Below are positions 23,155 to 64,000 of a stretch of 64,000 bases of DNA, piece after piece. The notes beneath the pieces are model-generated. The model saw only the letters and a program-made list of their open reading frames with translations. It had not been told where the DNA came from and made no database searches. A program made the position numbers and the translations under genes. The stretch comes from Chrysomallon squamiferum (lineage: Eukaryota > Animalia > Mollusca). Position 1 is the first letter of the stretch. The number at the start of each line of letters is the position of its first letter. The stretch is from contig CM022665.1 of assembly GCA_012295275.1 (NCBI GenBank), forward strand, positions 13,640,001 to 13,704,000. The letters run 5' to 3'.

Positions 23155-23294
23155 TTCCACCATTTATTAGTAGAGCACCACAGCCCAAAGAAGTGGAAGA
23201 AGGAGAGAAGGTTGAGTTTAGTTGTCAGGTTGATGGTACACATTATCCAGTCACAACAATCATCTGGCTAAAAGACAACAATTTTATTCACATT
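23155..23294 (+). CDS. PTK7: PTK7 exon, first half of Ig5
   Basis: PPFISRAPQPKEVEEGEKVEFSCQVDGTHYPVTTIIWLKDNNFIHI; ttacag/gtaagt sites. Confidence 0.9.
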
Positions 23295-23925: not shown

Positions 23926-24073
23926 GGGTCATCTCGACATAGGATGAATTTGGCAACTGGAGTGTTACATATAGAACCAGTGGAGCTGAGTGATGCTGGT
24001 GAATATGCTTGTGTTGCCAATACCACGGGCCATCCCATGGTGGACTCCAGTCGAGCCTATTTAAGAGTGAAAA
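23926..24073 (+). CDS. PTK7: PTK7 exon, second half of Ig5
   Basis: GSSRHRMNLATGVLHIEPVELSDAGEYACVANTTGHPMVDSSRAYLRVK (DAGEYAC motif); weak gtacat donor fixed by phase. Confidence 0.88.
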
Positions 24074-24240
24074 GTACATATCATTTAGTCTTTATTTATT
24101 TTTAATTTATTTCAATAATATTTCTACAGTCATATAATTAAATGTACATAATCCCTTCAAAAACCAGCAAAAAAACCCCATTATTATCTTCTTTTTTTTC
24201 TTCCAGTTTCCTTTCTTTCATAGCTATTTATTTTATTTTA

Positions 24241-24247
24241 CACACAC

Positions 24248-24298
<51 letters not shown>
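24241..24298. repeat. (CA)n microsatellite
   Basis: Direct reading. Confidence 0.95.
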
Positions 24299-24302
<4 letters not shown>

Positions 24303-24389
24303 AACAACTCGGTCATAAACATTTATTTATATATAATACTTTGTGTGTGATATTAATCATTACTTTTTATACTATGCTATTAACCCTAG

Positions 24390-24656
24390 GAAAGCTCAAG
24401 TTCAACCCATTACCACAGGATGCATTTTTAGAACTGAACTTGCATGGCAAGGTGGAGTGTCATGCTGAGGCAGACACCCGACCAGTGATCACCTGGATCA
24501 AACATGGGAAAAACCTTGACAGCCTTGAACACGTGTACCAGGAGAGAGGCATGTTGCTTTTTCAGAAAGTCAGGCGCAGTGATGAGGGCTACTACTCTTG
24601 TATAGCATCATTACGACAGCGTTACATCAATTCTACCATCTTTATCAAGATAATTG
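24390..24656 (+). CDS. PTK7: PTK7 exon, Ig6
   Basis: KLKFNPLPQDAFLELNLHGKVECHAEA...WIK...DEGYYSCIAS; KLKF.P.P start as in vertebrate PTK7 Ig6; cctag/gtgagt sites. Confidence 0.92.
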
Positions 24657-24934
24657 GTGAGTGTTTCTACACAGGTTAAATACATAAGTATTTATATATA
24701 TGCATACATGTTTCTCATTTAGAAGCCTTAATAATGTATGAAATATTTTCCTTACAAGAAATGAAATTCATGAAAAAATATGAACTAAACTAATTTATTA
24801 AATATTTTATAACAGTTTACCCTTAAATATCTATTTTTTTAAACAAAAAAAAGAAAAAAAATTTGGCTGTGAAAAGTGTTACTTTTAAAGTATTTCTCTT
24901 TATTTATTAATTTTATGATTTACTTTTTAAAAAG

Positions 24935-25086
24935 AGGGTCCACGTTTTGCTATAAGACCAGAGAACACGACAGCATTTGAAGGACATGCTGTTATGCTTC
25001 ATTGTGTAACATCAGGTGTACCTAAACCTACAGTATCCTGGCACCGAAACAGACAGGCAGTGCCATCCACTTTACCTCGATACAAG
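24935..25086 (+). CDS. PTK7: PTK7 exon, first half of Ig7
   Basis: GPRFAIRPENTTAFEGHAVMLHCVTSGVPKPTVSWHRNRQAVPSTLPRYK; donor gtattt. Confidence 0.9.
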
Positions 25087-25231
25087 GTATTTTATTACCT
25101 ATTTTACTTGGTGTATGTTTTAATCATCTTTTTAGTTGTTTTCAGTTAATACATAAACAAAATGTTAATTTCATTTTTAATGCATAGGTATTCTTACAAT
25201 TAAATTTTTGTTAGAATAGTTTGAAACTGTT

Positions 25232-25373
<142 letters not shown>

Positions 25374-25677
25374 TTTAATGGATTTGAAATTTGAAATTGT
25401 TCTCAGATTTTACCCAGTTTAAGTAAAATGAATAGTTTGAACTGTTTCATAAAATACTTAGGTGATCTAAGGTGCAGGTGATATAATACTATTTTTTTAC
25501 TTAAATGCTTATCATTTTGTATATATAATTTTAAAATTTAATAAATATTAAAGAAAAGCTAACGTTTTCTTTATTAATGGTTTATGATATGAATATTGAT
25601 TTTGATTAAACGTAAATTATCCATTTATTTATTTATTTATTTATTTTTATAATTATTATTTTTACCTGTAATTGTAG

Positions 25678-25798
25678 GTTTTTGAGAATGGCACACTACT
25701 CATCACTAAAGTGTTTATGGAAGATAAAGGCTTGTATGGTTGTTTAGCTAACAACACTGCTGGTCAGATACAAGCAGAGATCTATCTTCGAATTACAG
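25678..25798 (+). CDS. PTK7: PTK7 exon, second half of Ig7
   Basis: VFENGTLLITKVFMEDKGLYGCLANNTAGQIQAEIYLRIT; tgtag/gtacag sites. Confidence 0.9.
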
Positions 25799-25986
25799 GT
25801 ACAGTTTTTTAAAGAATTATTATTAGAGTATTTAAATGTGTTGATGTTAAACATTCATTCAGATTATTTTCATTATAGTTGAGGCAGGCTGTGGCTTGTA
25901 TAACATGAAATGTTAGGTTTTTATTTTTCAATTGTCTACTGGGTTTGATCTATAGCACACTAATTGTCATGATGTTGTCTTACTAG

Positions 25987-26133
25987 ATGCTCTTGATGAT
26001 AATGAAAGTTTTGACATGATGAAGACTATAATCATTGCTGTATGTTGTGCTGGGGCTTACCTTGCTCTTGTCATTGGTCTTACTGCTTTCTGTAGCTACA
26101 AAAGACTGTCTCGGAGAAAGAGAAATGGATTAA
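25987..26133 (+). CDS. PTK7: PTK7 exon, transmembrane helix
   Basis: FDMMKTIIIAVCCAGAYLALVIGLTAFCSYKRLSRRKRNGL: hydrophobic span followed by a basic stop-transfer segment. Confidence 0.92.
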
Positions 26134-26580
26134 GTAAGTAGTTATATCAGACAAAATTCTTATTATTATTGATTTTCATTTACTCTTAACAAATGTTTAC
26201 ATGAATGTTTTAAGAATCTTGAATAAAATGTTTAATATTTAACTGCTAAGATTCATTTCTCTTTATGGATAAATATAACAGGCAGTAATCAAATTAATTT
26301 TTTTCAAAATTACTAATCATTTTTAATAAAGTCAGTAGTGTTCTTTATAAAGTGTCTAATTATTTTGAATATTTAAAGAATAATGAAAGTAACAAGTAGA
26401 TATAATAATTAAATGCTTGATGTCAGCATATTACAGGTAATGATATTTGCACATTTATGCATAAAATCTGAATATATTGTTTCTCCTTCTTTTATTTAAA
26501 GAAATATTTTCAACATAAATTTAGTGAAGAATGATCAGTACCTTAAGTAAATGTGTAAATTTTAACTGATAAACTTTCAG

Positions 26581-26811
26581 TGTCGATTCCATTAAAAACA
26601 GAAAATGGAAGTGTCAACCGGGAACAGCATGAACTTCTTATGAAAGATCGTGAGTCAGGCACTCAGTTTCGAAGTGACAGTGACAACAGATCTCATGCAT
26701 CTGGACTCAGTTCACACCAGTCATCACAGTCCCAGAATTCCCGTAGTCGCAGGAGCAGTTTTGACCGATTCCAGTTTCCCAGACAGGATCTACACACACT
26801 GGCAATAATAG
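26581..26811 (+). CDS. PTK7: PTK7 exon, juxtamembrane region
   Basis: SIPLKTENGSVN...RSRRSSFDRFQFPRQDLHTLAII, with the D.+.FPR motif that precedes the PTK7 kinase domain. Confidence 0.9.
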
Positions 26812-27156
26812 GTAGTTTTCATACACATCAAAAATTCTAGAAAGAGTACTTTATATTATTGTTACTTTCACAAATTATATTTACAATCTTGTTTAATCCA
26901 GTTTTTTTTGTTTTTAAATGAAAAACCATATATGTAGAAGATGAAATTTTTTTTTATTTTTTTTATTTTCAACCTCATTGAATAATTCTAGGAAAGTTGT
27001 TGCTTCATTGAAGAGTGAGTTAAAAATGTTCATCACTTTCATTTTTAAATATTTATCATACCCATTGCGTCTCATCATTTTTCTTTTCTTTGAGGATTTG
27101 CTCAAATGTTAATTTGAACTGTTACTGAGTAATAATTGATATATTTACTATTTCAG

Positions 27157-27389
27157 GTAAATGTCAGTATGGAGATGTGTTTTTAGCTAAAGCAAGAGGT
27201 ATTCGTCCCACTGAGCTTGAAACTTTGGTGGTTGTTAAATCTTTACTTTCAAAAGATGAGAATATATTCTTCAATTTCCGACAAGAAATGGAAATGTACA
27301 GCAAGCTTGACCATGTGAACATCGTTCGATTGCTGGGCATGTGTCGAGAGATGGAGCCACAGTTTCTAATAACTGAATACTGTGACTGG
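27157..27389 (+). CDS. PTK7: PTK7 exon, pseudokinase N-lobe
   Basis: GKCQYGDVFLAKARGIRPTELETLVVVKSLLSKDE...FRQEMEMYSKLDHVNIVRLLGMCREMEPQFLITEYCDW, closely matching human GEVFLAKA...LVLVKSL. Confidence 0.95.
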
Positions 27390-28991
27390 GTGAGTAAAAG
27401 CCAGTGAGATGACAGATAATTGTTGTTTTTTTGTTTTTTTGTTTTTTTAAATAACAGAAAAATGAATAGTCAAAAAAGAAGTAAAAGTTCAAATTGATAT
27501 TATTTTTAATATTTAAACTGTTCTTCAGTGGTAATTTGAATTCTAAATTTTTAATTATTACTGTACTAATGAAATCTTTTTTTTTTTTCTTTTTTTTAAC
27601 ACTACAGTTCTCATCACTGAATTTTGGTTTATTAAAAATAGAAAATAAACTAGATTAATTTCTGTAAAATTTCAGTAGAGATATTTTGGTTCATGCCTGA
27701 GTCATGACAGATTAACAGGTTAATTAATATAATGAAGTCATTATTAACAATCTCCCAAACACAGTCTTATTCACCTCACCAGAGAAGCTGGTTAACATCA
27801 TAAAAAAATACAATCTGTTAACTTCTGTTTTGCATCATATATTCATAAACATGACAGCTTCATTTTGTAATCTAAAAACCCACTATTACACATATTTGAT
27901 AATATATGGCTCCTTTTTTTTTTCTCTCTCTCTTCTTTTTTTTTTTTCTCTTATTCATATTAACTGAAAAGGCTGGACCAGTTTTCCATTTTCTGCCTGA
28001 TACACCAGTTCATTAACCAGGGTTATCTCCCTTCCTTTATCTATGACCCATCAGAGCTTTTACAGATAATCATGTTGTTATTGTAAACATTTTCTTACAT
28101 CATAAGTTTTTATAAATTCAACACCAACCCATGGTGTACACTGTACTTTTAGCAGAATAGATGAATTAGTTTTCTATGTATTATCATCACTTTGTTTGAA
28201 GAAGGCTATTTGATTCAAGACAAAATATTGTACTTTATTTTTTTATTTATATACTTTGAGATTATTTCTCCAAAAATAAGTAGATATATGATCTTTCTGA
28301 TAAACTTGTGGTATCAAGGAAACTTCTGTTACATGCAGATGTCCTGTGTATGGTTAGGAGATACAGGGAGATAGTTCTGTAATTGCCCTTCATTAGGAAC
28401 AACTCACTGCACAGTTCATTACCAAGCTATCTACTGTAATACAAGATGATGGTGTCACTGAGTAATTGTACTCATTTCACCAGCTTGGGTCAGATTAATA
28501 GGCTAATCTATAGTGATAGTATTTTGTACTTTTTGTCATTTTATATTTATTGCTTTAATGTATCCATGATATTTTATTTTTCCCCCATCATTATTTAATT
28601 GAAACATTTACACCACTAATTAGATCTGTTTATGATTTTTATACAGATTTCCATGCATTAGTTCATTTTACTGGCTTGGAAAAATACGCTGTTATTGTAC
28701 AAATATCTGTACATAAATTAAAATTTATTTAGTTTGAAATTCTGTATGATAATAGTTTCTTTTCAGCATTTGTTTACTAGATTTATTATACATATTTTTT
28801 CATTCTTAAATATTAAATGTAGTCATTAAAAATATTTTTGATATTTTATTTAAATCAATTTTTTTTTTTTCAGATTTAAAAAATATTTCATACATTTCTT
28901 ATTTACATTTCTTATTATAACCATTTGTGGTATTTTTAATCCTTTTGCTGTTATTTTACTATAACAATACTGATTTTGTTTCCATCAACAG

Positions 28992-29570
28992 GGTGATGTG
29001 AAGCAGTTTTTGTTGGCCACACGTGGTGACAATGGTCAAAGAATTGCCCGAGTACCTGCACTGACTACAGGTCAGAAGGTGCGAATGTGTCACCAAGTTT
29101 CTCTGGGGATGGAACACATGTCCATGAATCGATTCGTGCATCGTGATATCGCAGCCAGAAATATTCTCTTGACATCACGTCTTGATCTTAAAATTTCAAG
29201 TCTATCACTAAGCATGGATGTGTATGCCAGCGAGTACTATCCCCACAATGGCAACCTCATACCACTGCGCTGGCTTCCACCAGAGGCACTGCATGACAAC
29301 TACTCCAGCAAATCGGATGTGTGGTCATATGGAGTATATGTGTGGGAGGTCTTCCATTTAGCAGACCTTCCTTTGAGATTGAAGAGTGATGAAGAGGTTC
29401 TCAAAGAGCTGAAGGCTGGTGAGGTTTCTTTAGATTGTTCCGAGCAGTGTCCATATGAAATAGTAGACTTGATACGTCGGTGTACCACTGAGCTTCCACA
29501 GGATCGACCTTCATTCAGTGACATTGTCATGTCATTGAGAATGCTCCATGACTCCATGCCTACTTTCTGA
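28992..29570 (+). CDS. PTK7: PTK7 last coding exon, pseudokinase C-lobe
   Basis: GDVKQFL...RFVHRDIAARNILL...LKISSLSLSMDVY...IPLRWLPPEA...SKSDVWSYG...RPSFSDI; DFG motif absent; TGA at 29568-29570. Confidence 0.96.
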   Translation, partial: GDVKQFLLATRGDNGQRIARVPALTTGQKVRMCHQVSLGMEHMSMNRFVHRDIAARNILLTSRLDLKISSLSLSMDVYASEYYPHNGNLIPLRWLPPEALHDNYSSKSDVWSYGVYVWEVFHLADLPLRLKSDEEVLKELKAGEVSLDCSEQCPYEIVDLIRRCTTELPQDRPSFSDIVMSLRMLHDSMPTF

Positions 29571-36354: not shown

Positions 36355-36626
36355 TCATGTCGAAGAACTATAGCTCTGTTGTCCTAACATACAATCGCTA
36401 TCGTTCTGGGAGATATTGTTACATGGTGTTGAAACGTACTGATCTTCTGCAGCCTGGGTACATTTCGTCTGAATCAGCTGAAAATTATTTTCAGAAAAAT
36501 ACAGTTGAGGATAAGTCATCGAGTCCTGAATGTCATCCAGTTCTAAAAGTTCATTCAGTAGTTCTTCAAATTCTCCTGTTTCAGTCAATGTGGTTGCCAG
36601 GTTGGTGTTCATGAAATCAAAGGAAT
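36355..36626 (-). CDS. Uncharacterised acidic protein, last coding exon
   Basis: tattacag acceptor; DSFDFMNTNLATTLTETGEFEELLNELLELDDIQDS...YSSST*; phase 1 matches the upstream exon. Confidence 0.6.
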
Positions 36627-36664
36627 CTGTAATATAATATGAATAAATAAATAAATAGACAGAT

Positions 36665-36742
<78 letters not shown>
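36665..36742. repeat. (AG)n microsatellite
   Basis: Direct reading. Confidence 0.95.
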
Positions 36743-36747
<5 letters not shown>

Positions 36748-36931
36748 TGAATAACTTCTCATTTCTATTAAAAAAGCACGAATTAATGAAAATTAGGATA
36801 AAGATATACATTAATTTTAAATAAATAAGAATATATTTTTTTTCAAACTATTTAAAATTTTAATCCAAAAAAACCCCAACATATATATATATATATATAT
36901 AAACATACACACATACACATAATGTTCTTAC

Positions 36932-37247
36932 CAATAAAGCTGTAGAGGTCATTTAAATTCGTTTGCTCTTGTATCTTCTTCTCAGTCTTACAAATCACAT
37001 TATTGCAATCTGACATGGACAAAGCTTCAAGTAAGGCCATTTGAGAACTGGAAAACGGATCATACTGAATATTGGTTTCGATAAAAAGTGGCTCCATAAC
37101 TGACTGTTTGTAAGACATCGTCGACGTGTATGTATGTTTTCGTGGTACGTTTGTTTCTTTCAGCTTCTGGACTTTGTGACTGATGTTTCCAACGCAGTTT
37201 GCTTTATAACGCTGCTGTTCATCTGGGATGATCAGTTGTAGAAGCAT
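36932..37247 (-). CDS. Uncharacterised protein, first coding exon (ATG at 37247, or Kozak-favoured ATG at 37118)
   Basis: Open frame ...MSYKQSVMEPLFIETNIQYDPFSSSQMALLEALSMSDCNN...LYSFI ending at a G|gtaaga donor; CpG-retaining region. Confidence 0.55.
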
Positions 37248-38175
37248 CTCTGGATGGGCGTGGCGTAATCAATTAATTTCCAACAATAATCGATCATTCC
37301 TTGCTTATTTCATCTGAACCAAACCGTTTCTAAGAATTTTAAGCTGTTGTTTTCATTCAGTGATGGCAAACAATCCGACGTACTTTGCTTAGTTTATTTT
37401 AGTACGCTGGTAAAACAGTTATGTCTTGAAAATCAGTTTGTGTGTCACATTGATTGTAACATGAGAAAATGTAGGGAGTGGAGGAAAGTATCTGAAATTT
37501 CTTAAGGAGTGGAAAAAAAGAAGAAATAATAAATAAATAATATACCTGATTAAAGGAATATGTATGTGTCTGTGTTTTAAACAATGATATTGATAATTTT
37601 CTTCAAAATTCCTAAATTTAAATGATAATTCAATTTAAAGAATTAATTTAATTTATCCAATACATTCCAGAATGATTATTTTAAAAGATGATTATATTTC
37701 GACGAGAATGATCAGTCTATGAAACGGGTGTACCTCATACAGACTTTTCATAATTTTCTGTTTTTTTGACTGTGTGTGTTTCAAGTAATAAAAACAATCA
37801 ATTTATAATATGCATTTTCGGTGGACGGGATAGCACTTTCCAGCGGCTTTTCACAGAGAAGGGGCTAGAATGAGTAAAAACTTACTTACCTGCCCAGTTT
37901 CTGAAATGGTCTTTACTTCACACATCTGCAAGAACTATTTTTATTTTTAAATAACATGTGTTTTTTATCGTTGACCTCGGTTAAAGTTATATTTCTTTAT
38001 AACCTTTTTGAACTTTGCACTGAAATAGCTGCAAATGGAATTCCTTGAAGTAAGGAAATAACTTATAAAGTTATAAACCATTTAACAGAATCGCAATAAA
38101 GATTTGAAAAAGTCGATTTTGTAAAATAAGAAATTTTTGTAACTATAGTAAATGTAAAGTAGAATTTCGAAAATT

Positions 38176-38447
38176 TAAACGTTTTCAAACTTTTTCATGC
38201 CGCGACCCCTTATGAGCAACTCAATATGACCAATGACCCCATTTAAATGTTTTGATTCAATAATATTTAGGGTTACCATATTTTCATCAACCAAAGACAG
38301 TACAAAAAAAAAATCTATGTTCACTACAACAGGTCCCAAACCTATCTATACATTTTTATTTATTCTTCCTTCCAAGTCAAGTTGAAAATAACTAAAACAT
38401 ACCCTCACTCAAGAACGATCTCACGACCCCCAGGTTGAAAACTTATG
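38176..38447. mobile_element. Degenerate hAT (Charlie-like) MITE
   Basis: GTTTTCAAAC (38181-38190) and GGTTGAAAAC (38433-38442) inverted ends, with subterminal (C)GACCCC motifs typical of hAT MITEs. Confidence 0.6.
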
Positions 38448-39480
38448 ACTTAATCCCTCAAGTTATTTGAACCAAAACTACTAATTTACTCTGATTTTGG
38501 TTAAAGCATGTAGGCACCCAAGAAAATCTAGATTATAATAAACTTCTATAAAGCCTTGGTTAATATTTTTTTAGTCACCAGTTTCGAAACCTATAAAATA
38601 TACAAAGAAGAAAATGTACATATATCACAGGCGTCAAAACTGTAGTTCACTTTACAGTAACAAATAATATATTAGATATGCGATGATGTTAACAAAACTA
38701 AATTGGTAAATAAATGATCCTATTTTTATAGACATTATGACAGAGTTATTATTAAAATTTGAATGCAACCAAATACGGTAAACAAACAAAAATATGGATG
38801 CAAATTACTGCTTTTGACAAATATTGATACGAGAGTATTTTGATTTACGATTCTGGCTATACTTGAGCAGCTAATTTGAGCCCTTTTTCACATTATGCCT
38901 TTATTTACGATATTTTGTCGAAGATAAAATATACACTGCCGACAGACAATTTCAGAAGAAAAAGTTGGGCATCATTTGATCGCTGTCACATTTGCGATAA
39001 ATGAGATCCATCATAATTAAATGAATATATATATATTATTTGTTGTTTTGTTTTAATAAGTATATTAGGAGTTATCAGTTCATAAAATAAACAAATTAAT
39101 TAATGTTTAACTGATTCTGATGTCATTAAATCTGGTTACTGTAGAGCAGCATGTTTTACTCAGAGGTAATACTTAGATTAAAAAAAAAAAAAAAAAAAAA
39201 AAAAACTCTATAAGTTAAAACACGTATTATACAGCAAAAACAAATTGAAAATTAGTCATTCATATAAAATTAAAATTAAAATAATATTCTTCAACAAGCA
39301 TATTTTAATGAAACGTTTGTGATACAGATGAGGATTGCAGATACAGGTGTATGTGTAAAACAATAATGTAAAAAGTATTACAGAATGAAAGTACACTCCT
39401 TGCTCAGGATATCACGGTATTTACATGTGTGGGGCATAGCATCCCTGGTTGCATGTTTATTAACAGAAAAGTATAAGATG

Positions 39481-41084: not shown

Positions 41085-42500
41085 TTATGCTAAGAACAAA
41101 TGTTTGTGTTCACTAGATGACTGTGTGAATCTGCCAATAATTGTTTCTGCATCCAGTTCATCTAACAATTCATTTTCAGTGGGTGGCAACATGTATGATT
41201 CCAAGTCCTCTTCAGACAGCTTATTTCTTAACCTTGTCTTTACGCTCTTTAGCTTTGAAAGTGTCCTCTCAGATTGGCTACAGTAACTGATGGTGCAGAT
41301 GAGTTTACAAAGGTTTACAAAGTTCATAAAGGTTATACACCTTGTCATGAAATCTGTTGGATGCCAGAATTTTTAGATCATATGATGGGCAAACACTGCA
41401 AATTTGACAGTTCATATTCTCACCATCATTAAGCAATAGTTTTAATACATCAAAGTTTGAAGCAAAAGAAAACAATATTATTTGATCTCTGCTGATTTGT
41501 GGAAACAGCTTGGTAATAATTTACAGTGCTTCAAGGCCTTTCTCTCCAATAGTTGTGAACTTTGCTGGGTCAAAGTAGGATACATCTGTATACAGTTGTT
41601 TGTATTCTACAAAAAGTTGATTCCAGTGACTAGACAATGTGATCCATTATTACGTTAAACACTTGAAAATCAGCTCAAGAATCTGAGGAATTTCCTTCAT
41701 CATCAATAAGCTCATCTACCTCTTAACTGATAATGTTGTTTCTAAACCATCAGTTTGATTTTCATCCATATTCATCTGTGAAACCTTGTCATTATATTTA
41801 AACATTCCAAAGGCTAATTGTGAATGTTATCAAATATTCTTATCTGTTCCATCCCCTTTGTTTGTAGTTGAATCTACCAAACTCCAAGCAGTAAACATAT
41901 CCAAACCATCTGTTTATATTTAACTTGGTGACAGGACTGTTGTTTTAAATATACAAGTAAGTAAATGTTGTCAACATAGTTTCAAACTTTAGAAGACTGA
42001 AGTAAAACATTTGCTTCCTTTTTCATTGTTGCATCAAACTTTACTCAGTCTTGAAGTACTGACAATTATGTCAGTAGATTTATAAAATTCTGGCAGCAGC
42101 AGCATCAAAATGTCTCACATAGCTGTTGCTGGGTTTGATTTCCTTGAACATCTGGTCTGAACAGTTAGCTTTAACTGTTTCATTTTGGCTTGTCCTAGAT
42201 GCTTTCCAACAACTTCAATGCATATAGCTGTTTTCTTGTATGCTATTTTCCTAAAAGTTGCTAAATTCTGGAGCAAAATGAAAAACAAAACTTGCAGATA
42301 TACAATATTTTGTTGTTTTGGTCATCACCAAATTCAGTGGTTGAATTATCTTATGTTGAATCAACCAGATAGAATATTTTGCTTGAGAAACTTTATGACT
42401 AATTCTTTCCTGTATCGTATGCTTCATAATTTCAATTAACATGTTAACAGTTGTTTTACTGAGATGTGTAACAAATCCACCAGGTTAGTAACATCTCTCC
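41085..42500 (-). mobile_element. Decayed hAT transposase (ZMYM1/Tip100-like) in the last intron of GPATCH11
   Basis: ORF 41085-41348 SQSERTLSKLKSVKTRLRNKLSEEDLESYML is the hAT C-terminal dimerisation motif (ERxFSxLKxIKxxLR); upstream sequence is frameshifted and stop-interrupted; 5' boundary approximate. Confidence 0.8.
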
Positions 42501-51407: not shown

Positions 51408-52145
51408 ATACATACATATACACATAATGCCATTTTTATTATTACTGGCTTTTGATCATTATTAATAGTTTCTTAGGCCATCACTATCAAGTGGATTAAA
51501 TGATTTTCACTTGACTATTATGATATGAAGAGTTAATTAATGTTGAGTTATAATAAAAAAAAATAATAATAATAAATAAAGATTTATATTGTACATAATT
51601 CAAGAAATGTTTATTGTATTTTGTTCATTTCTGGATGTTTTCATGGAAAAGCTGGAATCTAGAAGAAAAATGTGCAACCTACAAATTATTAATACTGATT
51701 ATAAACAACATCCACTTATAAGTTTATATATCAATGAATAATGTGTTTTAATAATACAATCATTTTAAAGATTGTCAGTCCTTTCTAGCTGCATATAAAA
51801 TGTATGGCGCCTTCAACAAGAAATGCAATGTAAGGCGATTTTCGTCTGTACTGAAATCGCCGGACATGCATGTTTTAATAAAATTGTAGCAAATGTGTGA
51901 ATATCGATAATTGCTACTTGCTGCACTTGATGAATTGAAAAATAAGATGAAATAATTGTTCTTGAATGGTTCGTAGCTGTTGGCTCACGCATCATTGTTA
52001 AATTAAAAACAAAAATACGACAGGTTTCTGGGTTTGGGATGGCAAAAATAAAGTTCGAGATCATGGATAATTTCAAACAATAAACATGGAATCACTCATT
52101 TACAAATATTCAGATAACTTTCTGGACGTTTTCTGATAATGTTAC

Positions 52146-52192
52146 CATTGTTGGAGAATTTTATCCGACATGTAGTCATCTTCATCGCTCAT
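52146..52192 (-). CDS. GPATCH11: GPATCH11 exon 1
   Basis: MSDEDDYMSDKILQQ with the conserved DYMSD N-terminus; the six exons total 852 nt = 283 aa plus stop. Confidence 0.9.
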
Positions 52193-52872
52193 TGCGTAAC
52201 TACTCACTATCTAAACGTCAAACTGTTTCTCTTTTTTTGTTTACTTTTTGCAGTTATACATATATTTAAAAAAAGAAAACAACCAAAACAAAAATGCATC
52301 CGTAAATTATCTCCTCTTGATCAGTTTGTAGTTACGGTGACATCCAAACCATTTCTATAAGCACCGTTTTCATAAATATTATTATTTAAAAAAAAACAAA
52401 AAACATTGTTTTGATTTTCTCAGTTTATTTATTTATTTTAATTATTCATTCATTTATATTTTTTTGTCTATTAGAATTAGTTTATAGACAGATCTCAAAA
52501 TGTTTATACATAAAGTAGTATTGTATTTCTTAATGCGTTACATGCAAATTCAGTAATTATTTTACTACAAAATTACCATGTTAAATTTCGAATAACAGAC
52601 ATCAAAATATATAATTTTATTTTTTGTTTTTGTTCATTGTTTACTTGTTTCAGTGTAAATCCGAATACAAATATTTAAACAGTACAGTAAATATATATTT
52701 TTTAAAACTATGTTTAATACTTACATACGTTAATACACACGTTAATAATTATCAGTCATAAAACCTTTCTTTTCATTACATGTTATAATCGTGAGAGAGA
52801 GAGAGGTTAAACGGTAAAATGATACTTTATATAATATTTCAGATAATAATAATAATAATAATAATAATTTTT

Positions 52873-52907
<35 letters not shown>

Positions 52908-53155
52908 AAGAATAAAGATAGAAGGTAAAAACACAAACAACAACAACTGAAAAGCACGTGGTGTAAATTGCTTGATGTATGGTCAGTGTCTTTTGATAAA
53001 GACAAAAGTAGGCGCTAAATTGTTATGTGTGTCACAGTTATCAGATATATTCAGTTTTGAAGATAAATCCTCCAATATGTGTCTGCTTGGGTGGCAAATT
53101 ATATTTTGCTGTGAGTGAGCCAAGTCGGCGAATGCAAAAAATAAGAAAAAAGTTG

Positions 53156-53194
<39 letters not shown>

Positions 53195-54026
53195 TTTTTT
53201 TTAATTAATTTTTTTTTTTTTTTTTTTTGAAAACAAAATGTCACCATAAATAAATTATCATGGTTTTTTCGATAATAGTAATTATTGTGCATAGTAGGTT
53301 TCGTCTCCATTCATGAAAATGATTGTGCTAGCGCACTTTACGAATCCGCATGCATAGTTAAGGCTCATAATAATAAAGTGTTCATTAATGAAAGAATATA
53401 ATGACTGTAATTATTGTTACGTCAGACATGGCCTTAACTAGACTCTTTTTGAAATGAGGCAAAAATACATAATCGCCGGAGCGGGGCAAAAAATTTGGGC
53501 GAGGGGTCTGGGGGCCGCCAGAAGCTCTGACTTGAAAGGCGCAAAATCCTGGATTCTAGCCATTGTATTTTATATTTTAAAAACAAAAAAATCCAACAAC
53601 TGTTTTATTAAAAAAATAAAATAAAAAAAAAATGTTTTTAAAAATTAGTCAATTTCGGTATGAGGCATTTGCCTCAATGTAGTTACGGCCATGTCAGGTG
53701 ATCGAAGGGGATACTTTGTATTTTATCATTCAGTAATACTGTTTTACGAATAAACTGCTATACAAGCATATTATAATACATATAATATTTAAAGAATATT
53801 TTCAAAGTTGACAGTTGTTTACTTCAGACATTTTAATAAATGAACAATTCAGTTTTAAAATTCCGCCTCTTAATACTGTACACCAATTTTCTAAAGATAA
53901 AACCGCCCACTCTCTGCCTCGCCCTCTTTACAGAAATTATGTTTGTGTGGTTATGCGAACATATTTAATCGCTTCAATTAATATTATTTCCTTACGTAAT
54001 ACGCATATAGTGGGGGGTTTGTTGGG

Positions 54027-54059
<33 letters not shown>

Positions 54060-54287
54060 TATATTAAAAATTATTTGATGTGTATCATCTTTATCGCTTT
54101 ATGATAAGAGCATGAAGTATTTCTCTCCGTTTAACCATAGCAAAGCAGCTTGCGTAGCATAGGGCTGACGTCACACTGTTATTTGTGAAAACCTATTCAC
54201 GGAAGTCGACGCGCGCTGACTCACGGCTTGTGACGAATTGATGAAAACCTTACGTATATTATTGGAGCAAACCATTTCTTACAGAAG
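52193..54287. promoter_or_regulatory. Divergent (bidirectional) promoter region between GPATCH11 and the DUF3504 gene
   Basis: Head-to-head genes; CpG-retaining; TGACGTCA 54166-54173, CGGAAGT 54200-54206, TGACTCA 54217-54223, TTACGTAA 53992-53999; likely 5'UTR intron 54288-54371. Confidence 0.6.
53427..53693. mobile_element. Non-autonomous DNA transposon (MITE) in the divergent promoter
   Basis: CATGGCCTTAACTA ... TAGTTACGGCCATG TIRs (1 mismatch); subterminal TGAGGCA motifs, including the palindrome TGAGGCATTTGCCTCA; GC-rich GGGGTCTGGGGGCCGCC core; flanks TCAGA/TCAGG. Confidence 0.8.
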
Positions 54288-54532
54288 GTAAAGGAATTTA
54301 TTTGTGGTTTCTAACCATAGATTTATTATGCATAAAGAACTCAACACTAATATGTTGTTGTCTGCTTTCAGCATTATAAAAAGGATATATTTTCCGACAT
54401 ATTGTGCGTAGGTCGGGCCAGAAAAGAGAAGTTGAGCTGTGATGCGCTCTGAGGATCAATAGATTCGTAATCATATCGGCTACGTCAGTGAGGCTAACTC
54501 ATTTATCACTGACGTCATTGCTATCCCACAAC

Positions 54533-55241
54533 ATGTCTCAGGCTGCGACAAGTAAATGTGAACAAAAAATGGAGTCACGACAAAAATCTGGGTCATTTAG
54601 TAGCAGATCGTCCGAGGATTTTTCCGAAACAAGTTTCGATGGTGAGAGTGACGGTCTGGTGGGGTCTGCGACACATCATCTTGTCCTATTCGCGATGACG
54701 AAGGGACATACTAGGACCACACTCACGCGTATGCCTCCGGCTCAGTTGGCAGAATTTCTTCGCGAATTCTACGGAAAAGTCAGGGCTAAATTAGACGACA
54801 GTTCACCCGCTTTACGTGACATTCGGTTAGGTCTTCACAAATACTTTCTAAAAGAAGCAGGATTCGATATTATTAAGGATCGAACGTTTTATAGTGCTAA
54901 TGCCAGCTACGAAATGGCAGTACGAATGGGACCCAGAAAATGTCATCGTCTGAGAATTGAAATGGATGACTTGCAGCAACTTTATTTGAGTGACGCAATG
55001 AATGTAAACAATCCAGAATCGTTACAGAATAAAGTATTTTTCGATATAAACTTGTACATTCTGAACAGAGGTAAAGAATGTCTGCGAGTTATGACCAAAA
55101 CGGATTTCGAAATCGCAACGGATGAATCGGGAAACAAATTCGTTTGGCTGAAATATCACCCGAAATTTAACTTGCACGAAAAAGGTGGATACGGTGACAT
55201 CAAAGGAAAACAGCTTGGTGAAAAAATGTTTGAGAGACCAG
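54533..55241 (+). CDS. DUF3504/Crypton tyrosine-recombinase-derived protein (KCTD1-N/KIAA1958/QRICH1/ZMYM-like), coding exon 1
   Basis: LAEFLREFYGKVR...LRDIRLGLHKY...DIIKDRTFYSAN...PESLQNKVFFDINLYILNRGKECLRVMTKTDF...MFERP; G|gtaaat donor. Confidence 0.88.
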
Positions 55242-55303
55242 GTAAATATTCATTTGATGATAATCAGTATTTTAAATTCTGTACTTAAGTAAAATGTTTC
55301 AAT

Positions 55304-55402
<99 letters not shown>

Positions 55403-55455
55403 GTCTTTTTTGTGTGTGTGTGTGTGTGTGTGTGACAGTGTGTGTGACAGTGTGT
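55304..55455. repeat. (CT)n followed by (TG)n compound microsatellite
   Basis: Direct reading. Confidence 0.95.
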
Positions 55456-56879
55456 AATTTGCTGAACACTGGAGCATATAAACCTAAAAGTGTGAACATA
55501 TTTTTTTCCATGAAAAGATATTTTTTTTTTGTAACTGAAACAAGTGAAAAGATGGGATTTCCCCAAGTAAAGTTACATAATCAGCTAAAGCTTTAAAATG
55601 AGTATTAAGTTTTTTCAGGCTTTTTCCTCATTGGCTTTATTATTTAATATTTGAATATTAAACCCTTATTTAATAAACTTTTAATAGTGTATCATTATAA
55701 TTTTATTACATATTTCTAAAACTAATATTGTCTAATGCTTTATTTAACTTCTTAAATTTAAATATAACTATTTTGTTGTGTAACATTTAATGTCTAATTC
55801 AAATTTTAATTTATTAAAAGTGCTATTTAAATGTTTTTCAATTTATATATTCCTGTGTTTGCTATATTAGATATAGATATATATATATATCTTAATATTA
55901 TGGTCTTCAGTCTTTAACAGGATGATAAATAAGGATCAAAAACACATCTTGAAATCATAATTTTTTTAATTTGTACAAAAATTGCAAAATATTTATAATG
56001 TAATTCTAATTTGTTATGTGCAGTCTTTGAATTGGTCTCATACTGATTACTTGACTTGAAAAAATTAGATTTTTTTTCACCATGAATGTTGTTTTTGCAC
56101 CATTTTTGACTGTGTCAACAACAACAATGAATTTTCTTTTCTAAAAAAAAAAAATAATTATATTAATAATAATAATAAAAAAAAATCAAATTAAAATGAA
56201 GTGACATAGCTGGGGTGGTTATGAAGTAGGACTAATAATTGAGAAAATAATTTGACATCAATCTCAAAGATCTTTAAGTTGATGGCAGAGCTGATATGTA
56301 AGCAATTATATTTATAACTAATAAATTGGTTTTTGGCATTTTTGTCTATAGGAACTTGATATATTTTACATACCTGAAGATAAATGGCTTCTTGCTAATG
56401 TCATTTGCCACTTGTGTCAGATCACGAATATAAAAAATGACCATATTTTTTTTTAATTTAATTTTTATTATAATTGTTTGTGTTTTTTGTTTTTAATGTT
56501 TTTTTTTTTTTTTTTTTATGTCATTGTTAGAGTAAAATTGTGATATTTAGCTAGTTGCAATAGAAATAATAAGTAATAAAATAAAAGTTTATCATTCATA
56601 AAATATTAATGATAGTTTTAAGTATGATGTAGCATAATAGGATATTTAAAAAGCATTATATCAATAACCAACATATGAAAAGAACATATTTTAATTTTGT
56701 TGTTGTTGTTGTAAATTTTCAAATAAAATGGCAAGCTATCCTCTGATTTAAAAAGCCTTCTACCAAACGTTTATGTTTGTATATAATTGTAATATGTGAA
56801 CTGATTTGTATAGTGTATGCATGTACTTAAAGACAATGTTTTACACTGTGATATTCTTTCTTTCAGAAATATGTTAAGC

Positions 56880-56880
<1 letters not shown>

Positions 56881-56953
<73 letters not shown>
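56881..56953. repeat. (ACTA)n tetranucleotide microsatellite
   Basis: Direct reading. Confidence 0.95.
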
Positions 56954-59120
56954 AAATAATAATAATAATAACTAAAATGTGGTTAGTAATAATAATAAAA
57001 CATGCATTTGCTCATCATAATAAATTTTTAAAAGTGTTAAAAAATTTAAATAAAAAACACTGCTGGCACTAAGTGGAAATTCTTCAATTATTTGGAAAAT
57101 AGGTTGCATTATACCGTTAGATACATGAATGAATTAATGTATTTTGTTTTCTACCAAAATACTTATTCATTTCCTTTTACACAAGTATTTGCAAAAAGTA
57201 AATCTGACAGTAATACAAGCTGATAAAGATGCCTGGATTATAGCACTTTGTCTTTAATGGTTATATATACATTTACATTATATAAAATTACATACTCAAT
57301 GTAAATTCATTAAATTATGTAAGTGTCTTAATATTAATTAAATGATATGTTATAGTAGGTACCATGTTATTTAGCATTAGAATAAGCTATAAAATTATTT
57401 AATATGTGAAATGTGATTATTCAGTTTAAAGTGATAGTGTATGTTAAATTAATTTTTAAGGCAATTTTTTTTCATGACTTCTGTATTTAGTAGCTTTATT
57501 TGTTGAAATCAGTTTTGTTATTTTATTTTAAATATAGATTTGCCAGTTAATATATTTTATTTTTCTTGGATTTAAGTAAAGAATATATTTTTCTCTTACA
57601 AAGTCAGATTTCAGTTAATGTGTTACAGTATACAAGTTTTGGCAAAATTATGGTACTAAGTATGTTAATTGTTTCAATGTATAATTGTCACAGATACAAA
57701 ATTTTGTATCAGAATAACTGACAGATCATGCATGTATCTGTGTGTGCACAGGCTGTTACATTGTGAAAAACACTAATCTCTCTCAGGGTGATAGTTAAGA
57801 CCATACAAAATTGTATGTGTTTGCATATATGTGTGTATGTTTTCGTGCATTTATGTGTGCATATGGGTTTCTATGAATAGTTAGAATGAAATGGACTTTT
57901 CTTGCTCAACAAGGAGGATCTAAATACCAGTCCTCATCACCAAAACCATTACATAACTTTCCATTCCAGTAATATGGTGTTAAATAGCCATCAGTATGAA
58001 AAGATACATTGTTACATGTTATTAAAGAAAAAGAATAAAAATTCAAATAAATAAACACATTGGGGGACCTCTAATATAGATCAGTACAAGCTCCAGTACT
58101 GCAAAGTATCTCTGTATGAAGATCCTTGAGATGTCAGTGATAAACATTACCTGATATTTTGTTTGTGTATTTTCATCAGTCAGTCAGTCCCCCGTGCATT
58201 TCCAGAAAACAGAAGCAACAATCCATTCCATCATAAAGTGAGAGCTTGCTAGATGCATGAGATTATTGCGCAGGAATTGTTCATAAATGACACATGCTTT
58301 AGTTCTGTTTGAACAATTGGTACTTAGGCACACACATATGATTGAGAAATTCCCCACTGCTGTGTTGTCTTTGCCATTACTTGTGTTTGTACATGACAAG
58401 TTTTAGAATTGAACCACCTGTTCTGATCAGTCATATATGGAAGAAGTTTCCTATACCATGTGCAGAAACAGAAAATAGCTTAAAACCTATTGATTAGAGG
58501 TGAATTTGAATGTTATATCATTCCTTAGATGCTAGTAAGTAACGGTGTCTACATTTTGATGTCTTCTGCATCAAAGGATATAATCAGAGAATAATCTGTT
58601 GTCTTCCTGATAAAATAACAGTGAAATCCTAAACTTGCTATCAAAGGATATTTGAATCCTGCTACAAATCTTGCAAATGAGTGAAAACAAAGCAAGTCTG
58701 TACTTGGTGCAGTGATACTGGAAGTAACAGGTGAACCAGATGACTGACTCTTTTGAAAATGTTTCATTTGTTTTGTAACTATTGAGCTACATGTCTATAT
58801 TAGTGTATCAAAGTGAAAAATTATGTTTTCTCATTGAATGGAAAAATTTAATGGGGTCAGAGTTTGCATAATTAATACTTTGAAAATAAGGATCACCCTA
58901 GTGCACTTAAATCAGCATGGAAAATAACTTCAATGACATTAGATATGGCTAAATTGGTATGATTATAGGTATATCTTTGCATATATGTCTAAATTCATGG
59001 ATAAATGTAATTTGGTTTTTGTCTCGTTGAAAAGTGCATTTAATTTCATTTTTAAATAAGTGTATTATTTTCGTTAACAAAGAAAAAAACAATTCCTTAA
59101 TTACATTTTATTTACTTCAG

Positions 59121-59522
59121 GTGATCCAAGATGTCCAGTTTTATCATTTGTTAAATACATGGCTCATCTTCATCCAATGACAGATGCATTTTGGCAGAGA
59201 CCAAAACGAAATGTTAGTGATGCTGACTATGTTTGGTATGACAACACCTCCCTTGGCAATTCTACTCTTAGTAAAATAATGCAGAGGATGTGCATCCATG
59301 CAGGACTTAAAGAAAACTACACCAATCACTCAATTCGTTCATCATACATTCCTTTAATTGAAACAATATGTCAGGACACACTGAACTCTGGAAAGTCATC
59401 GGCAATGCCACCCCCATTGGTGACACAAACTAATTCAGTTGCTGATGATGATGGATCATCAAATGAGACAGAATCACGTGATGGTGATCATGAAGAAGAT
59501 AATGGTGATGACCAGTCAGTTG
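59121..59522 (+). CDS. DUF3504 protein, coding exon 2
   Basis: GDPRCPVLSFVKYMAHLHPMTDAFWQRPK...VWYDNTSLGNSTLSKIMQRMCIHAGLKENYTNHSIR, the DUF3504 core. Confidence 0.9.
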
Positions 59523-60850
59523 GTATGAATTTACCCATGTTATTTTATTTTATTTTTAAAATCAGTACTTAAATTTTATTTTATAGCTGTTGTTGTAAAC
59601 ATTATGTATGTATTTTTATTTTATTTTATTATTATTATTTTTTTTTTTGGTTACTATAGTATTTCAGGGATTTGTTTTTATAAAAGACATTATTTTTTTT
59701 CAGAAATGATAAGTACTGACAGTCTTGTTTGAGAAATATCAAAATCACATAATTACTCACCAAACATTTCATAAAATTTTGGGTTGTATTTAAATGATAC
59801 TATTCTTGTTATTGTAAAGAAAATATACTATATATCACTGCTCTTGTGAAAAAAAATATACAATAAATATTGAGAAAAGAATATAATTGTAGCTTATGAC
59901 TAACAGTTGTACAATTATTTATAAACATCCATTCCTTGCATTCATCACATATAACAACATTTCTATATATCAACTTCTGACCAAAACAATCAAACATGAT
60001 ATAATAAAAATAGCAACAGTCTAAGAAACTATTAAGGCTACAAGATAAATGTGCTAATCACATTTCCTTGAAGCTTTTCAGTCTTCAACTGGTACATTAT
60101 AGTTCTATTAGAATGCACACAATAATATTATAATATTATAAAGTCATAATTTTAGCTAGTTTTTTTCTTTTAGATGCCCAATCATAACTCTACTCCATAA
60201 TTTGTTCTAGCTCATTTTTGTGATATTATAGCTGGGTTTTGTTGTAACAGCAATAATTAGTTTTATTACAAATGTATCTGTACTATTACTAATACTATCA
60301 CTGACATCATCATCACAGATTTAAAAGCAGGAATAAAAAGTTACCTTTAAACACAAGATTATCAGTAAGGGTTATTGTTCTTGTTATTATATATATATAT
60401 ACAAATTTTAATTTTAAAATCTATTTGAAAAGCTGTATTCAAATGCAAAAGGGAACTTAGGAGTATGTTTGGAGGCTTGGAGAATTGAAATTATAATATA
60501 ATTTACATAATTTAAATTAGTTTGTATTACTAATTAGTACATAGACAGTTACATCAACAGATATGATAGAGAAATTGAATAATGTATAAATATAATAAAA
60601 TATTTTCTGTTAAATTTGTTAACTAAACCTCTAAATTTCTTTTTGCTAATTTAATTATGTATTTATATATTTAAAAAAATGTTTGGAAAAGTAGACATTT
60701 TTGTCTTGCAAAACAAGCAAAGGTTATTGATAGTGTTTAATCAAAAATCATTTATAAGTCAGGTTTTAAAAAAAATGTTACTTACGATTTTCAGATTATA
60801 TTTATATTTTATTGTAGTTTATTTTAATAAAGAGAAATCCCCCTTTTCAG

Positions 60851-60964
60851 GTTTGCAAGCAGCAAAGCTAAAAGTACTTCAGTTGTTGAGGAATTTGTTG
60901 GTCAAAGACATACAAAAATTTGCTGATTGGCTTAAAACAGTTCGTGTTGAGCATAGATCTGGAG
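60851..60964 (+). CDS. DUF3504 protein, coding exon 3
   Basis: LQAAKLKVLQLLRNLLVKDIQKFADWLKTVRVEHRSG; ttttcag/gtaaga sites; symmetric phase-1 exon. Confidence 0.75.
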
Positions 60965-61243
60965 GTAAGAAGGAAAAAATACTATTTTTAATATAAATAT
61001 TAGTCTAAAAATATTGGGCCGATGACAGTAATTTTAATCAAGTGTAAGTTTGATAAAAAAATTTTTATTTAAATACATGCTGACACAAATCATTCTAAAA
61101 TGATTCAGAAAATACCAGACTTTCTTTGCTCTCAGAACTTGATTCATACCCTGCATCCATGCATATTTACAAGCACACAAATGCACTCACAGTGTTTCCA
61201 TTAAACACACCATACATAATTAATTTTTGTGACTGATAGATGA

Positions 61244-61274
<31 letters not shown>

Positions 61275-61304
61275 AATATATATCTTTTTTTTTTTTTTTT
61301 TCAG

Positions 61305-62269
61305 AGCTGATAGTTCTTTGCAGTCCAGTAAACCAGACATCAGTAGACCTAGCAGATGAATGTTCATCAGGTGACAAATCTGACCATACATTGTCTAGTA
61401 AAAAGATCTGTAGCCTGGCTGGAATGCATGACAAAATCAGACAGAATGGGAAAAGTGGAAGTTTTTCATCCACATCTTCAGGTTCTAGCTGCAGTATGGA
61501 CATTGGTGGAAATAACTTTCATAGTGACAGAAACCATTCACTATATGTCAGAGAGGGAGTTTCAGTGAAGAATGTTGAGTTTGATTCAATTGCTGGAACT
61601 TCTTGCTCAACTAATGATTCATGTCCTTTCAAGCTTACCATTCCAGCACAGGATACACTTTTAATGACTGGGATCACTGACAACATGCAGATTCTCCTGC
61701 ATAAGAAAACAAATGAGTCACAGGAAAAAGAATTACTTTCTCACCGCATTTTTTACTCAGAAAACGAAATGGACATTGCCACAATTTTAGGTTCTTGTGA
61801 TAGTCAAAAGGCCAGGCATGATTCAGACTTGTTGACTGGCAAGCAGACCAAACATGCTATTAAAAAAACTACTGTAATGCAAAAAGTAGGAGGCAAATAT
61901 GATACCTGCATCAAATTGGATGCTGGCTCACAGAAGCAAACCCAAGTTGTTAATGAGAAGAAAAATAGCCACCAGGCCATGAAATTAAATCCTTGTTTGA
62001 AGAGACAGGCTAGAATTGAAGGAGGTGATAACCAAACTGATATTACTTTACCAAAGCGCTTTTGCAAGAGCAACAGTGATGTGACAACAAGTTGTGGAAG
62101 CACTCGAATACAGTCTGTACCCACAGGATCACTGGACACACCCAACTACACACGTTCTTTTGATTTCAGTGATGAATCAATAATGTCATCACCACTGATG
62201 AAGAAAAAGAGGGTCACATTTGGCAGTGATGCACAAAACATGTCAGTGAAAAGAGAATCAGTTTTGTGA
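61305..62269 (+). CDS. DUF3504 protein, last coding exon (Ser-rich tail, NLS/RVxF)
   Basis: poly-T cag acceptor, in frame with ORF 61391-62269; the four exons total 2190 nt = 729 aa plus stop. Confidence 0.78.
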
Positions 62270-64000
62270 TTGCTTATCATTAAAAACTAATTCACATTTT
62301 GGGTGGATTTGTTTTTAATTTAAAAAAGAAATTTATAATTGTTGGAGACTGTCCGAGAATGTGATATCTCTAAAATAGAGGTTGATTTTCTTTTGAAATT
62401 CCATTTTTATTATATTATTTGTCTCCAGCTTTTATTAATACTAAATGATTGTTTATTTTCAGGATGACAACATTTTGTTTGTCACAGATTTTGTTTTTAG
62501 TGTGGCTTCCTTTCAGTAGATGTACGTACTGAAATTGATCATTGTATTCAGATTCTTGGTCATTACAATCTCTGTTGCACATCTAACTTTGTGAAATAAA
62601 TCATGGCAGATAGTAAAATGTATCTCGTGTTGCAATTTTCAACAAGTCAAACATTACAGATTTTGTTTGGGTTTTTTTTAAAACATTTTTGGATACTATT
62701 GTACAGTCATGTAAATAAGATATGTTAAAATGTAGCATTCATTTCAAGTCATAGTTCATAATCTTCAGCTTTCATCTATATAATTTGTATTCATTTAACA
62801 GGATTTTTTCTTTAAATTGTTTTTGGACCAAATGACTGAGTTAAAATTTTCATCACACTCACAAACAAATATGTCAAATGTAATATAAACTAGTCTGCAG
62901 CATTGTTTTAAATATATATATATATATATATATATAGTTTGTATATAATGCTTGTGTGTATATATATGTATGTGTACACATATATAAAGTTTGGGAACTT
63001 GGGACAGTTGTGCAATTTTAAATGCACATTTTAAAAATGTGGAATTTTAAGGAATGTTTTGAAAGGTGCTGATTTTCAGAAATCACATCTAAATGATCTG
63101 TATGCAAGAACATCACTGTTCAAATTGTTAATGGATTTTTAAGTTTTTATTGCTGTTGCTCATACAGGTGTATGTGTGTTTTAATTTGTTTTAAATACAG
63201 AAATATTCAGAGATTGTTTCTTACAACAGTATTTAAATTATTATTTGATACAGTTTGCAAGTATATGTATTTAAATTTTATAATAATCAGTTCTTTTTTT
63301 CTTTTTCTTTTTTTACACCTGATATTATTTGCAGATTATTATCTGAAATACTATCTAGACAGTTATTAAGATTAATATATTTTTCACAGTTTATATGATA
63401 TTTTAGTATAAGGCCTAATCATAATTTTTGTTTTTATCATTATTATTTTGTAACATTTATTATTTTATTATTCATTTTAACATCTACTTGTCATTAATTA
63501 TGTGAATAATGCTTTACATTATATTAATAGTAACTATAATTATAGTTTAAACAGAAATGTTTAATGTAATATTGTATGTCTTTAATCGGTTTACCATGTT
63601 CATTTGAAAATTATAATATTCATGTTTGGGAATTGTAATTAATTACTACATTTTCACAATCGTATGAATTACATGAGTTAGAGAAAAGCATATAATAATG
63701 TAGTTACTAATTATATAACTATATATCCTCAGTCTTATATTTTCTTTCTCTGTCTTCTAAAATGTCAACAAATCACCTATGCAAATAAAAAGTAAAAAAT
63801 CAGTCTATATCCCTATTTGACATGTATTACTGACACAAAGACAGCCTATATATTCAGGCTCATGTGTGAAATTTCTGGTACGGTGTTTTTTATTTATCGT
63901 GGTAACCCTTAGTAAATACCCAACTAACCAGGATTTTAAACAACTATCTACCACCACTATGATTTATTTAGATTAATGTTTTAAAAATGACTTCCAGTGA

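Follow-up and report, generated by a model that had tools for sequence, protein, structure and literature searches.

The window analysed here, a stretch of 64,000 nucleotides from the mollusc Chrysomallon squamiferum (GCA_012295275.1, contig CM022665.1, positions 13,640,001 to 13,704,000, forward strand), contains a gene with a DUF3504 recombinase domain, for which an origin from a Crypton transposon is discussed below. The coordinates of its exons and of the neighbouring features are collected in Table 1. An earlier note, made from the DNA letters, had read a 729-amino-acid open reading frame, intact over four exons, and this was borne out. The splice sites are of the GT-AG type, each of the three introns is in phase 1, and the joined exons make 2190 nt, encoding 729 amino acids and a stop codon with no internal stop. 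The ATG at 54533 is the first in-frame start after a stop codon upstream of 54443, and the abalone relative begins at the matching residue.

The stretch occurs in five public runs, of which four are RNA. Splicing was checked with contigs from three of the four listed RNA runs, which belong to one study, and from one run of unknown type, aligned on positions 58900-62800. All three junctions were found in the RNA contigs. The joint between exons 2 and 3, with GT..AG ends, was seen in each of the three RNA runs compared. In the same three runs exons 3 and 4 were contiguous on one record, where six unaligned letters are the six exon bases just before the first aligned position, and the unaligned end before exon 2 was identical to the end of exon 1 (55209-55238). 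One RNA contig of 3083 nt would span the entire coding sequence if it is colinear, exon 1 itself not being aligned, and RNA contigs extend into the 3' untranslated region to at least 62800. The run of unknown type was continuous over intron 2 and had none of the joints, as would DNA. The locus is a real, spliced and transcribed mollusc host gene.

Table 1. Exons of the recombinase-derived gene and neighbouring features (positions of the window)
Feature	Position	Strand	Remarks
Exon 1, coding part, aa 1-236	54533..55241	+	N-terminus rich in Ser; helical, Cre-like core-binding domain at about aa 40-135; recombinase catalytic fold, first half, including R179
Exon 2, aa 237-370	59121..59522	+	Remainder of DUF3504 (RCP, FWQRP, YTNHSIR), divergent helix, acidic linker; RNA contigs
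HxxR remnant, H306-R309	59327..59338	+	Eroded across the family
Exon 3, aa 371-408	60851..60964	+	Most of conserved block C1; GT..AG joint in RNA
Exon 4, aa 409-729	61305..62269	+	End of C1, variable linker, block C2, disordered tail with KKKR and terminal VKRE; RNA contigs
CpG-retaining stretch over the 5' ends of both head-to-head genes	51701..55300		CpG observed/expected (o/e) ratio about 1, against 0.29 window-wide; rest of the gene low
Likely first coding exon of the divergent G-patch neighbour	52146..52192	-	Likely ATG at 52192; G-patch Pfam match in a downstream exon; context, not part of the gene

The N-terminal part of about 320 amino acids is a tyrosine recombinase of the CryptonA type, composed of a Cre-like core-binding domain and DUF3504. 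The motifs NRGKE (aa 178-182) and YTNHSIR (aa 303-309) and the HxxR remnant all lie where they had first been placed. The Pfam profile PF12012 matched exon 2 alone with E=1.6e-6 and 28.7 bits, slightly below the cut-off of 29.7. In the protein family described below, a PF12012 match at E<=0.1 was obtained for 27 of 27 members, and five of the six members scanned singly passed the cut-off. No BTB, MYM or other Pfam domain besides DUF3504 was detected in the 27 members scanned, nor was a Q-rich region present, in agreement with the earlier reading of an architecture unlike KCTD1, ZMYM and QRICH1. Weak matches to LAP2alpha in 11 of the 27 members (best E 7e-4) stayed below the cut-off and were treated as noise.

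The residues required for recombination were compared with a reference set of 51 intact-type recombinases, chosen by the pattern HxxR...G[HW]-x8-Y. The copy in the window keeps two arginines and the histidine (R179, H306 and R309). In the family, the first Arg is R in 25 and K in 7 of 32 rows, and the His and the second Arg of HxxR are each present in 13 of 25 rows. The loop Lys, found in 50 of the 51 intact-type proteins, is mostly replaced by F, R, I or T, and by L in the window copy, although this loop is aligned less surely. Neither the H/W box nor a Tyr was found at the catalytic distance after HxxR in the window copy, and a GH/GW box occurred in one of 24 rows, which is a truncated model. 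This check covered 24 of 28 rows and the window; the remaining four, from venerids and myids, were missed by the motif pattern, and their aligned sequences have no such box. The R-H-R-Y tetrad of active CryptonA is accordingly not present in the gene, and the apparent loss of the catalytic Tyr that the earlier note had seen was reproduced. Judged from these residues, the protein is a catalytically dead recombinase.

Loss of the active site is accompanied by strong conservation elsewhere. An alignment of 26 members showed four conserved blocks with variable linkers between them. Invariant columns amount to 8 of 96 in the core-binding domain, 53 of 181 in the catalytic domain, 12 of 49 in C1 (aa 371-419) and 5 of 81 in C2 (aa 492-572), and to none in the linkers and the tail. 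The catalytic positions drift while these 53 columns of the catalytic domain stay fixed, and 24 K/R columns between aa 57 and 309 are kept in at least 90% of the 26 members. Neither C1 nor C2, both conserved, has a Pfam match. The region after the recombinase domain had been described as an acidic linker, a helical exon and a Ser-rich tail. The linker was found as described, but the exon and tail are not mere low complexity: the "Ser-rich tail" holds a folded, conserved domain, since C2 is conserved and confidently modelled as beta-rich.

Structure models were compared with known folds. The abalone (Haliotis) protein was modelled with confidence in two places only, the first domain, with a predicted local distance difference test score (pLDDT) of about 90, and part of C2. 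Its residues 29-144 aligned to Cre 29-132 with Z 10.6 and a root-mean-square deviation of 4.7 A over 99 residues, the first unrelated row having Z 5.9, and the eight Foldseek matches with E<=0.001 were all to Cre or Tre. The comparison with Cre that the earlier note had called for gave an alignment of the core-binding domain. In a separate model of C1-C2 from Lottia (mean pLDDT 68, predicted template modelling score 0.44), C1 was predicted as two helices and a beta-hairpin (pLDDT 59-75) and C2 as beta-rich with a core of pLDDT 82-93. For C1-C2, Foldseek gave no match at E<=0.001, the best Z by VIA-align was 3.4 among 48,161 chains, the profile had no match among PDB sequences, and the Atlas features gave no usable match. 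These results demonstrate neither that the fold is new nor that it differs from known ones. When the N-terminal part and C1-C2 were predicted together as a complex, with no alignments used, the score was 0.00, which gives no verdict. It was also considered that exon 3 could be the detached end of the recombinase fold, i.e., the helices after HxxR. This was not supported by a profile-profile comparison with 54 intact-type tails, which gave a probability of 0.6% over seven columns, against 94% for a control stretch.

The C-terminal tail contains short motifs. A psi-K-x-E motif lies within the last 25 amino acids in 18 of 28 members, compared with 12 of 616 overlapping background windows, counts that are not independent because the members are related. 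A PxDL-like motif was found in six others, which without exception belong to the heterodont/unionid section of the tree. A short basic cluster was present in all 26 rows checked, by a loose pattern and with no control.

Relatives of the gene were found in two classes of molluscs. The exon 1 query retrieved six mollusc proteins among 859 candidates, the best being that of Haliotis asinina (69% identity). The profile from those six gave 34 matches among 7614 candidates, namely 27 family members with E<=3.8e-131 and, after a gap, seven Crypton-like proteins from E=4.1e-73. From the profile matches and cluster look-ups together, the same layout was found in 33 named species, comprising 17 gastropods (limpets, abalones, caenogastropods and heterobranchs) and 16 bivalves (pteriomorphs, two heterodonts and one unionid). 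Each species has one 90% protein cluster, except Candidula with two, and this is not a genome count. The two gene copies of Candidula unifasciata (P0017, P0021) fit a duplication in its lineage. Among the matches obtained there was no named cephalopod, chiton or non-mollusc member, which is not proof of absence, and the most divergent fragment was P0096. Of 229 collected proteins, none but the family members and fragments of them scored for C1 and C2. A search for C1-C2 in proteins lacking DUF3504, or in other animals than molluscs, gave 13 matches from 1168 candidates, all of them family members; since this search was word-based and limited to 405-1292 aa, distant homologues would escape it. 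A metagenome scan with 97 pattern matches yielded two loci, neither of them long enough to show synteny; the two clam loci end before the neighbouring genes.

A full HMMER scan gave 4080 matches at E<=0.001, of which the best 150 were listed. Among these best 150 of 4080 are P0124, P0129, P0160, P0186, P0095, P0117 and others, which are Crypton-like, have no catalytic Tyr, carry long unrelated tails and stand on different branches. Judged from their sequences, they may represent additional independent domestications, or else artefacts of the gene models. For Lottia gigantea (P0199 and P0026), another DUF3504 protein, partial and on a long branch, was recorded on a contig with the same length (5,155,532) as that of the family member, so the two are possibly on one scaffold.

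In a FastTree phylogeny of 156 rows, all 32 family rows fell on one branch. The IQ-TREE analysis used 47 chosen rows (14 from the family, two of the KCTD1b type and 31 others) and had no WOC, ZMYM, QRICH1 or KIAA1958 references. All 14 family rows again formed one branch with a support of 100/100 and a stem of 1.04, and within it the gastropods (99/95), the pteriomorphs (95/92) and the window copy with Haliotis (99/97) were grouped in a broadly host-like order. Forcing the family and KCTD1b into one clade was marginally rejected by the approximately unbiased test (p-AU 0.042). The phylogeny proposed in the earlier note was thereby obtained as far as KCTD1b is concerned. Because of the long stem, the donor element cannot be named.

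Intron 1, which lies inside the recombinase fold, is at the same codon and in the same phase in both clam loci, and 12 of 14 exon-1 reading-frame fragments diverge at its position. An additional intron, immediately ahead of the HxxR segment, is present in both clam loci. In one of them (L002, 3180-4040), the last 14 exon codons and the donor site are repeated in tandem many times inside the intron. A comparison of the two clam loci across 60 codons gave a proportion of nonsynonymous differences (pN) of 0.046 against a synonymous proportion (pS) of 0.80, indicating purifying selection; as synonymous divergence is saturated, only pN << pS can be given. Conservation in both classes and the shared intron imply that the gene predates the gastropod-bivalve split, which is Cambrian. 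Of the earlier wording "lineage-specific or undescribed domestication", undescribed fits, but a family that is present in both gastropods and bivalves is not lineage-specific.

The gene is placed head-to-head with a G-patch gene, which we take to be GPATCH11-like, with an ATG-to-ATG distance of 2.3 kb. Of the CpG-retaining promoter shared with a housekeeping gene that had been proposed, the CpG retention stands, but a shared promoter was not demonstrated, only the head-to-head placement. Further left of the G-patch gene, Pfam identified a gene with immunoglobulin domains and a tyrosine-kinase-like domain at 21500-29570 (+), presumably PTK7. Its kinase exon has SLS at the expected DFG position, which we assume to be a trait of PTK7-type pseudokinases. 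A second CpG-retaining patch at 37001-39000 (o/e 0.85-0.89) has no gene start assigned, and two minus-strand frames lie at 36355-37268. A short frame at 41085-41372 (-), with no Pfam match, resembles a hAT transposase in its C-terminal dimerisation region and is probably a decayed element. The flanks of the recombinase-derived gene contain simple-sequence repeats only, and no second copy of the gene was found in the 64-kb window.

Spliced RNA, conserved relatives, a lost active site and a clade of its own together agree with the earlier proposal of a domesticated, catalytically dead Crypton/DUF3504 gene, and we regard domestication itself as close to certain. It is generally reported that DUF3504 host genes derive from Crypton transposons and that the known ones are transcription regulators (available part of PMC3212892). 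By analogy with them and from the models, the product is probably a transcription regulator that binds DNA or chromatin in the nucleus, built from a dead Crypton recombinase. A CryptonA copy may have been fixed before the gastropod-bivalve split; the end of its catalytic domain would have been lost, and it would have been joined to the exons for C1 and C2. The retained core-binding domain and catalytic scaffold would then clamp DNA as in a recombinase, without cleavage, while C1 and C2 could be oligomerisation or partner-binding modules. The basic cluster of the tail would serve nuclear import, and the terminal psi-K-x-E of SUMO type, or the PxDL-like motif in heterodont and unionid clams, may recruit co-repressors. 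In its fullest form, this proposal would make the gene the fifth case in animals of a Crypton domesticated independently, dating back to the gastropod-bivalve split, which gave rise to a mollusc-specific, sequence-specific transcription factor. The dead clamp would read DNA, the two uncatalogued domains would be the effector, and the C-terminal co-repressor handle would have been swapped between a SUMO type in gastropods and pteriomorph bivalves and a CtBP-type PxDL in heterodont and unionid clams. We put forward this complete version tentatively, as possible but doubtful in its entirety.

Several observations weigh against a DNA-reading regulator or the evidence used for it. The assignments of the tail motifs to SUMO, CtBP and nuclear import follow consensus patterns that we assume to apply, and four of 28 members have neither terminal motif. 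The net charge of the recombinase-derived domain has a median of +4, compared with +9 in the intact-type set and +12 in KCTD1b, which weakens the DNA-binding reading. In the full model the catalytic domain is poorly predicted (mean pLDDT 47.8), and for a helical bundle a Z below 13 does not by itself settle the match. The invariance of HxxR in the intact-type set is by construction, as the set was selected on that motif. The bivalves do not form a single branch in IQ-TREE, and the RNA comes from one study as contigs, which give no level, tissue or start site. In addition, the DUF3504 domain of ZMYM3 can be deleted without altering chromatin binding, and instead binds RAP80/ABRA1 (PMC5358723, in the part available). 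On the other hand, Kctd15 is SUMOylated at such a C-terminal motif, according to the accessible part of PMC3782465.

The ZMYM3 result and the lower net charge of the mollusc family would also suit a recombinase fold of the same origin that holds proteins together, as a scaffold within complexes of chromatin or DNA repair, and reads no DNA sequence. We consider this unlikely, since the core-binding domain has been kept and is modelled with the fold of the Cre DNA-binding domain, and since the K/R columns of this region are conserved. It is still less probable that the family goes back to one of the described DUF3504 genes (WOC/ZMYM/QRICH1, KIAA1958 or KCTD1b), as a diverged paralogue or orthologue in molluscs, and not to a domestication of its own. 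Some members do carry the database auto-names KCTD1_15, "potassium channel tetramerisation domain" or ZMYM2-like/QRICH1, the identity to fish KCTD1b reaches 32% over 268 aa, and the long stem, in a tree with the reference gaps mentioned above, hides the true sister. These points are opposed by the lack of companion domains in all 27 members and by the marginal rejection of a common clade with KCTD1b. Furthermore, the median identity of 31% to intact-type Cryptons equals the 30% to KCTD1b, and the ZMYM layout (a MYM array with C-terminal DUF3504) was seen in none of 42 long matches scanned. KCTD1b is moreover vertebrate in origin, and mollusc WOC is listed separately, in the available part of PMC3212892.

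Molluscs carry CryptonA elements (CryptonA-1_LG in Lottia; PMC3212892, part available), and the fold that binds element ends is retained, so a host-encoded brake on Crypton elements was also considered, in which a dead recombinase would occupy the element ends or poison the active tetramer. The sequence is, however, fixed far from present elements (26-35% identity), and the strong conservation in two classes and the regulator-type motifs suit a host role better than an arms race; we judge such a brake very improbable. An active or recently dead Crypton transposon can practically be dismissed, because the catalytic Tyr and the H/W box are missing, three introns are present of which one is common to clams, the flanks show only simple-sequence repeats around the one copy in the window, and the family has about one member per species in a broadly host-like tree.

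Four animal Crypton domestications are described (KCTD1b, KIAA1958a, KIAA1958b/L and WOC/ZMYM/QRICH1), with an ATF7IP insertion and a tunicate candidate, and the accessible part of the same source (PMC3212892) lists molluscs only under WOC and as CryptonA-1_LG, with none special to molluscs. DUF3504 genes in molluscs are mentioned in general in the available part of PMC13465315, and the DUF3504 mention for Mytilus chilensis, in that of PMC10776947, is a ZMYM2-like annotation. No published description of the mollusc family was found in literature searches, whose coverage left subscription journals and Repbase Reports outside. Judged from its sequence, the gene is apparently an old mollusc Crypton domestication, independent of the four described animal ones, and it adds a conserved case with a new domain layout. 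That animal regulators can arise by domestication of Cryptons is already established; the gene extends this pattern and overturns nothing. The KCTD1_15 and "potassium channel tetramerisation domain" labels can mislead expression studies in molluscs. Whether DNA is bound by dead DUF3504 domains could also be tested simply with this gene, because Pfam finds no other DNA-binding domain in the protein, unlike ZMYM.

Among the known systems, KCTD1b resembles the mollusc gene in having an N-terminal CryptonA-type domain without the catalytic Tyr but with the first Arg kept, followed by host-type C-terminal domains, and KCTD1b (P0195) also has a C-terminal psi-K-x-E motif, of the kind that is SUMOylated in its paralogue Kctd15. 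However, its BTB and KCTD1/15 C-terminal domains, which were found in P0195 as a control, are both absent from all 27 mollusc members, and the KCTD1b rows keep the catalytic Lys that the mollusc family has lost. KCTD1b arose in vertebrates, and its recombinase domain is a single exon in KCTD1 (PMC3212892, part available), whereas introns lie inside the domain in the mollusc gene, and the two stand on separate branches in the tree. WOC, ZMYM2-4 and QRICH1 are, like the mollusc gene, old host genes with a catalytically dead, intron-containing DUF3504. In these proteins the domain is C-terminal, behind MYM fingers or a Q-rich region (available parts of PMC5358723 and PMC10579616), whereas it is N-terminal and without these in the mollusc gene, so that the two are set apart by layout. 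KIAA1958 a/b, compared by description only, is likewise a host gene whose DUF3504 has no named companion domains and whose function is not known, but it is vertebrate with intronless DUF3504 exons (PMC3212892, part available), and an intron interrupts the domain in the mollusc gene. Finally, the core-binding and catalytic domains of CryptonA transposons align end to end with those of the mollusc gene at 26-35% identity (51 intact-type proteins). Compared with them, the mollusc gene lacks the GH-x8-Y end, has the Lys replaced and HxxR drifting, and carries 400 extra residues with two conserved blocks.

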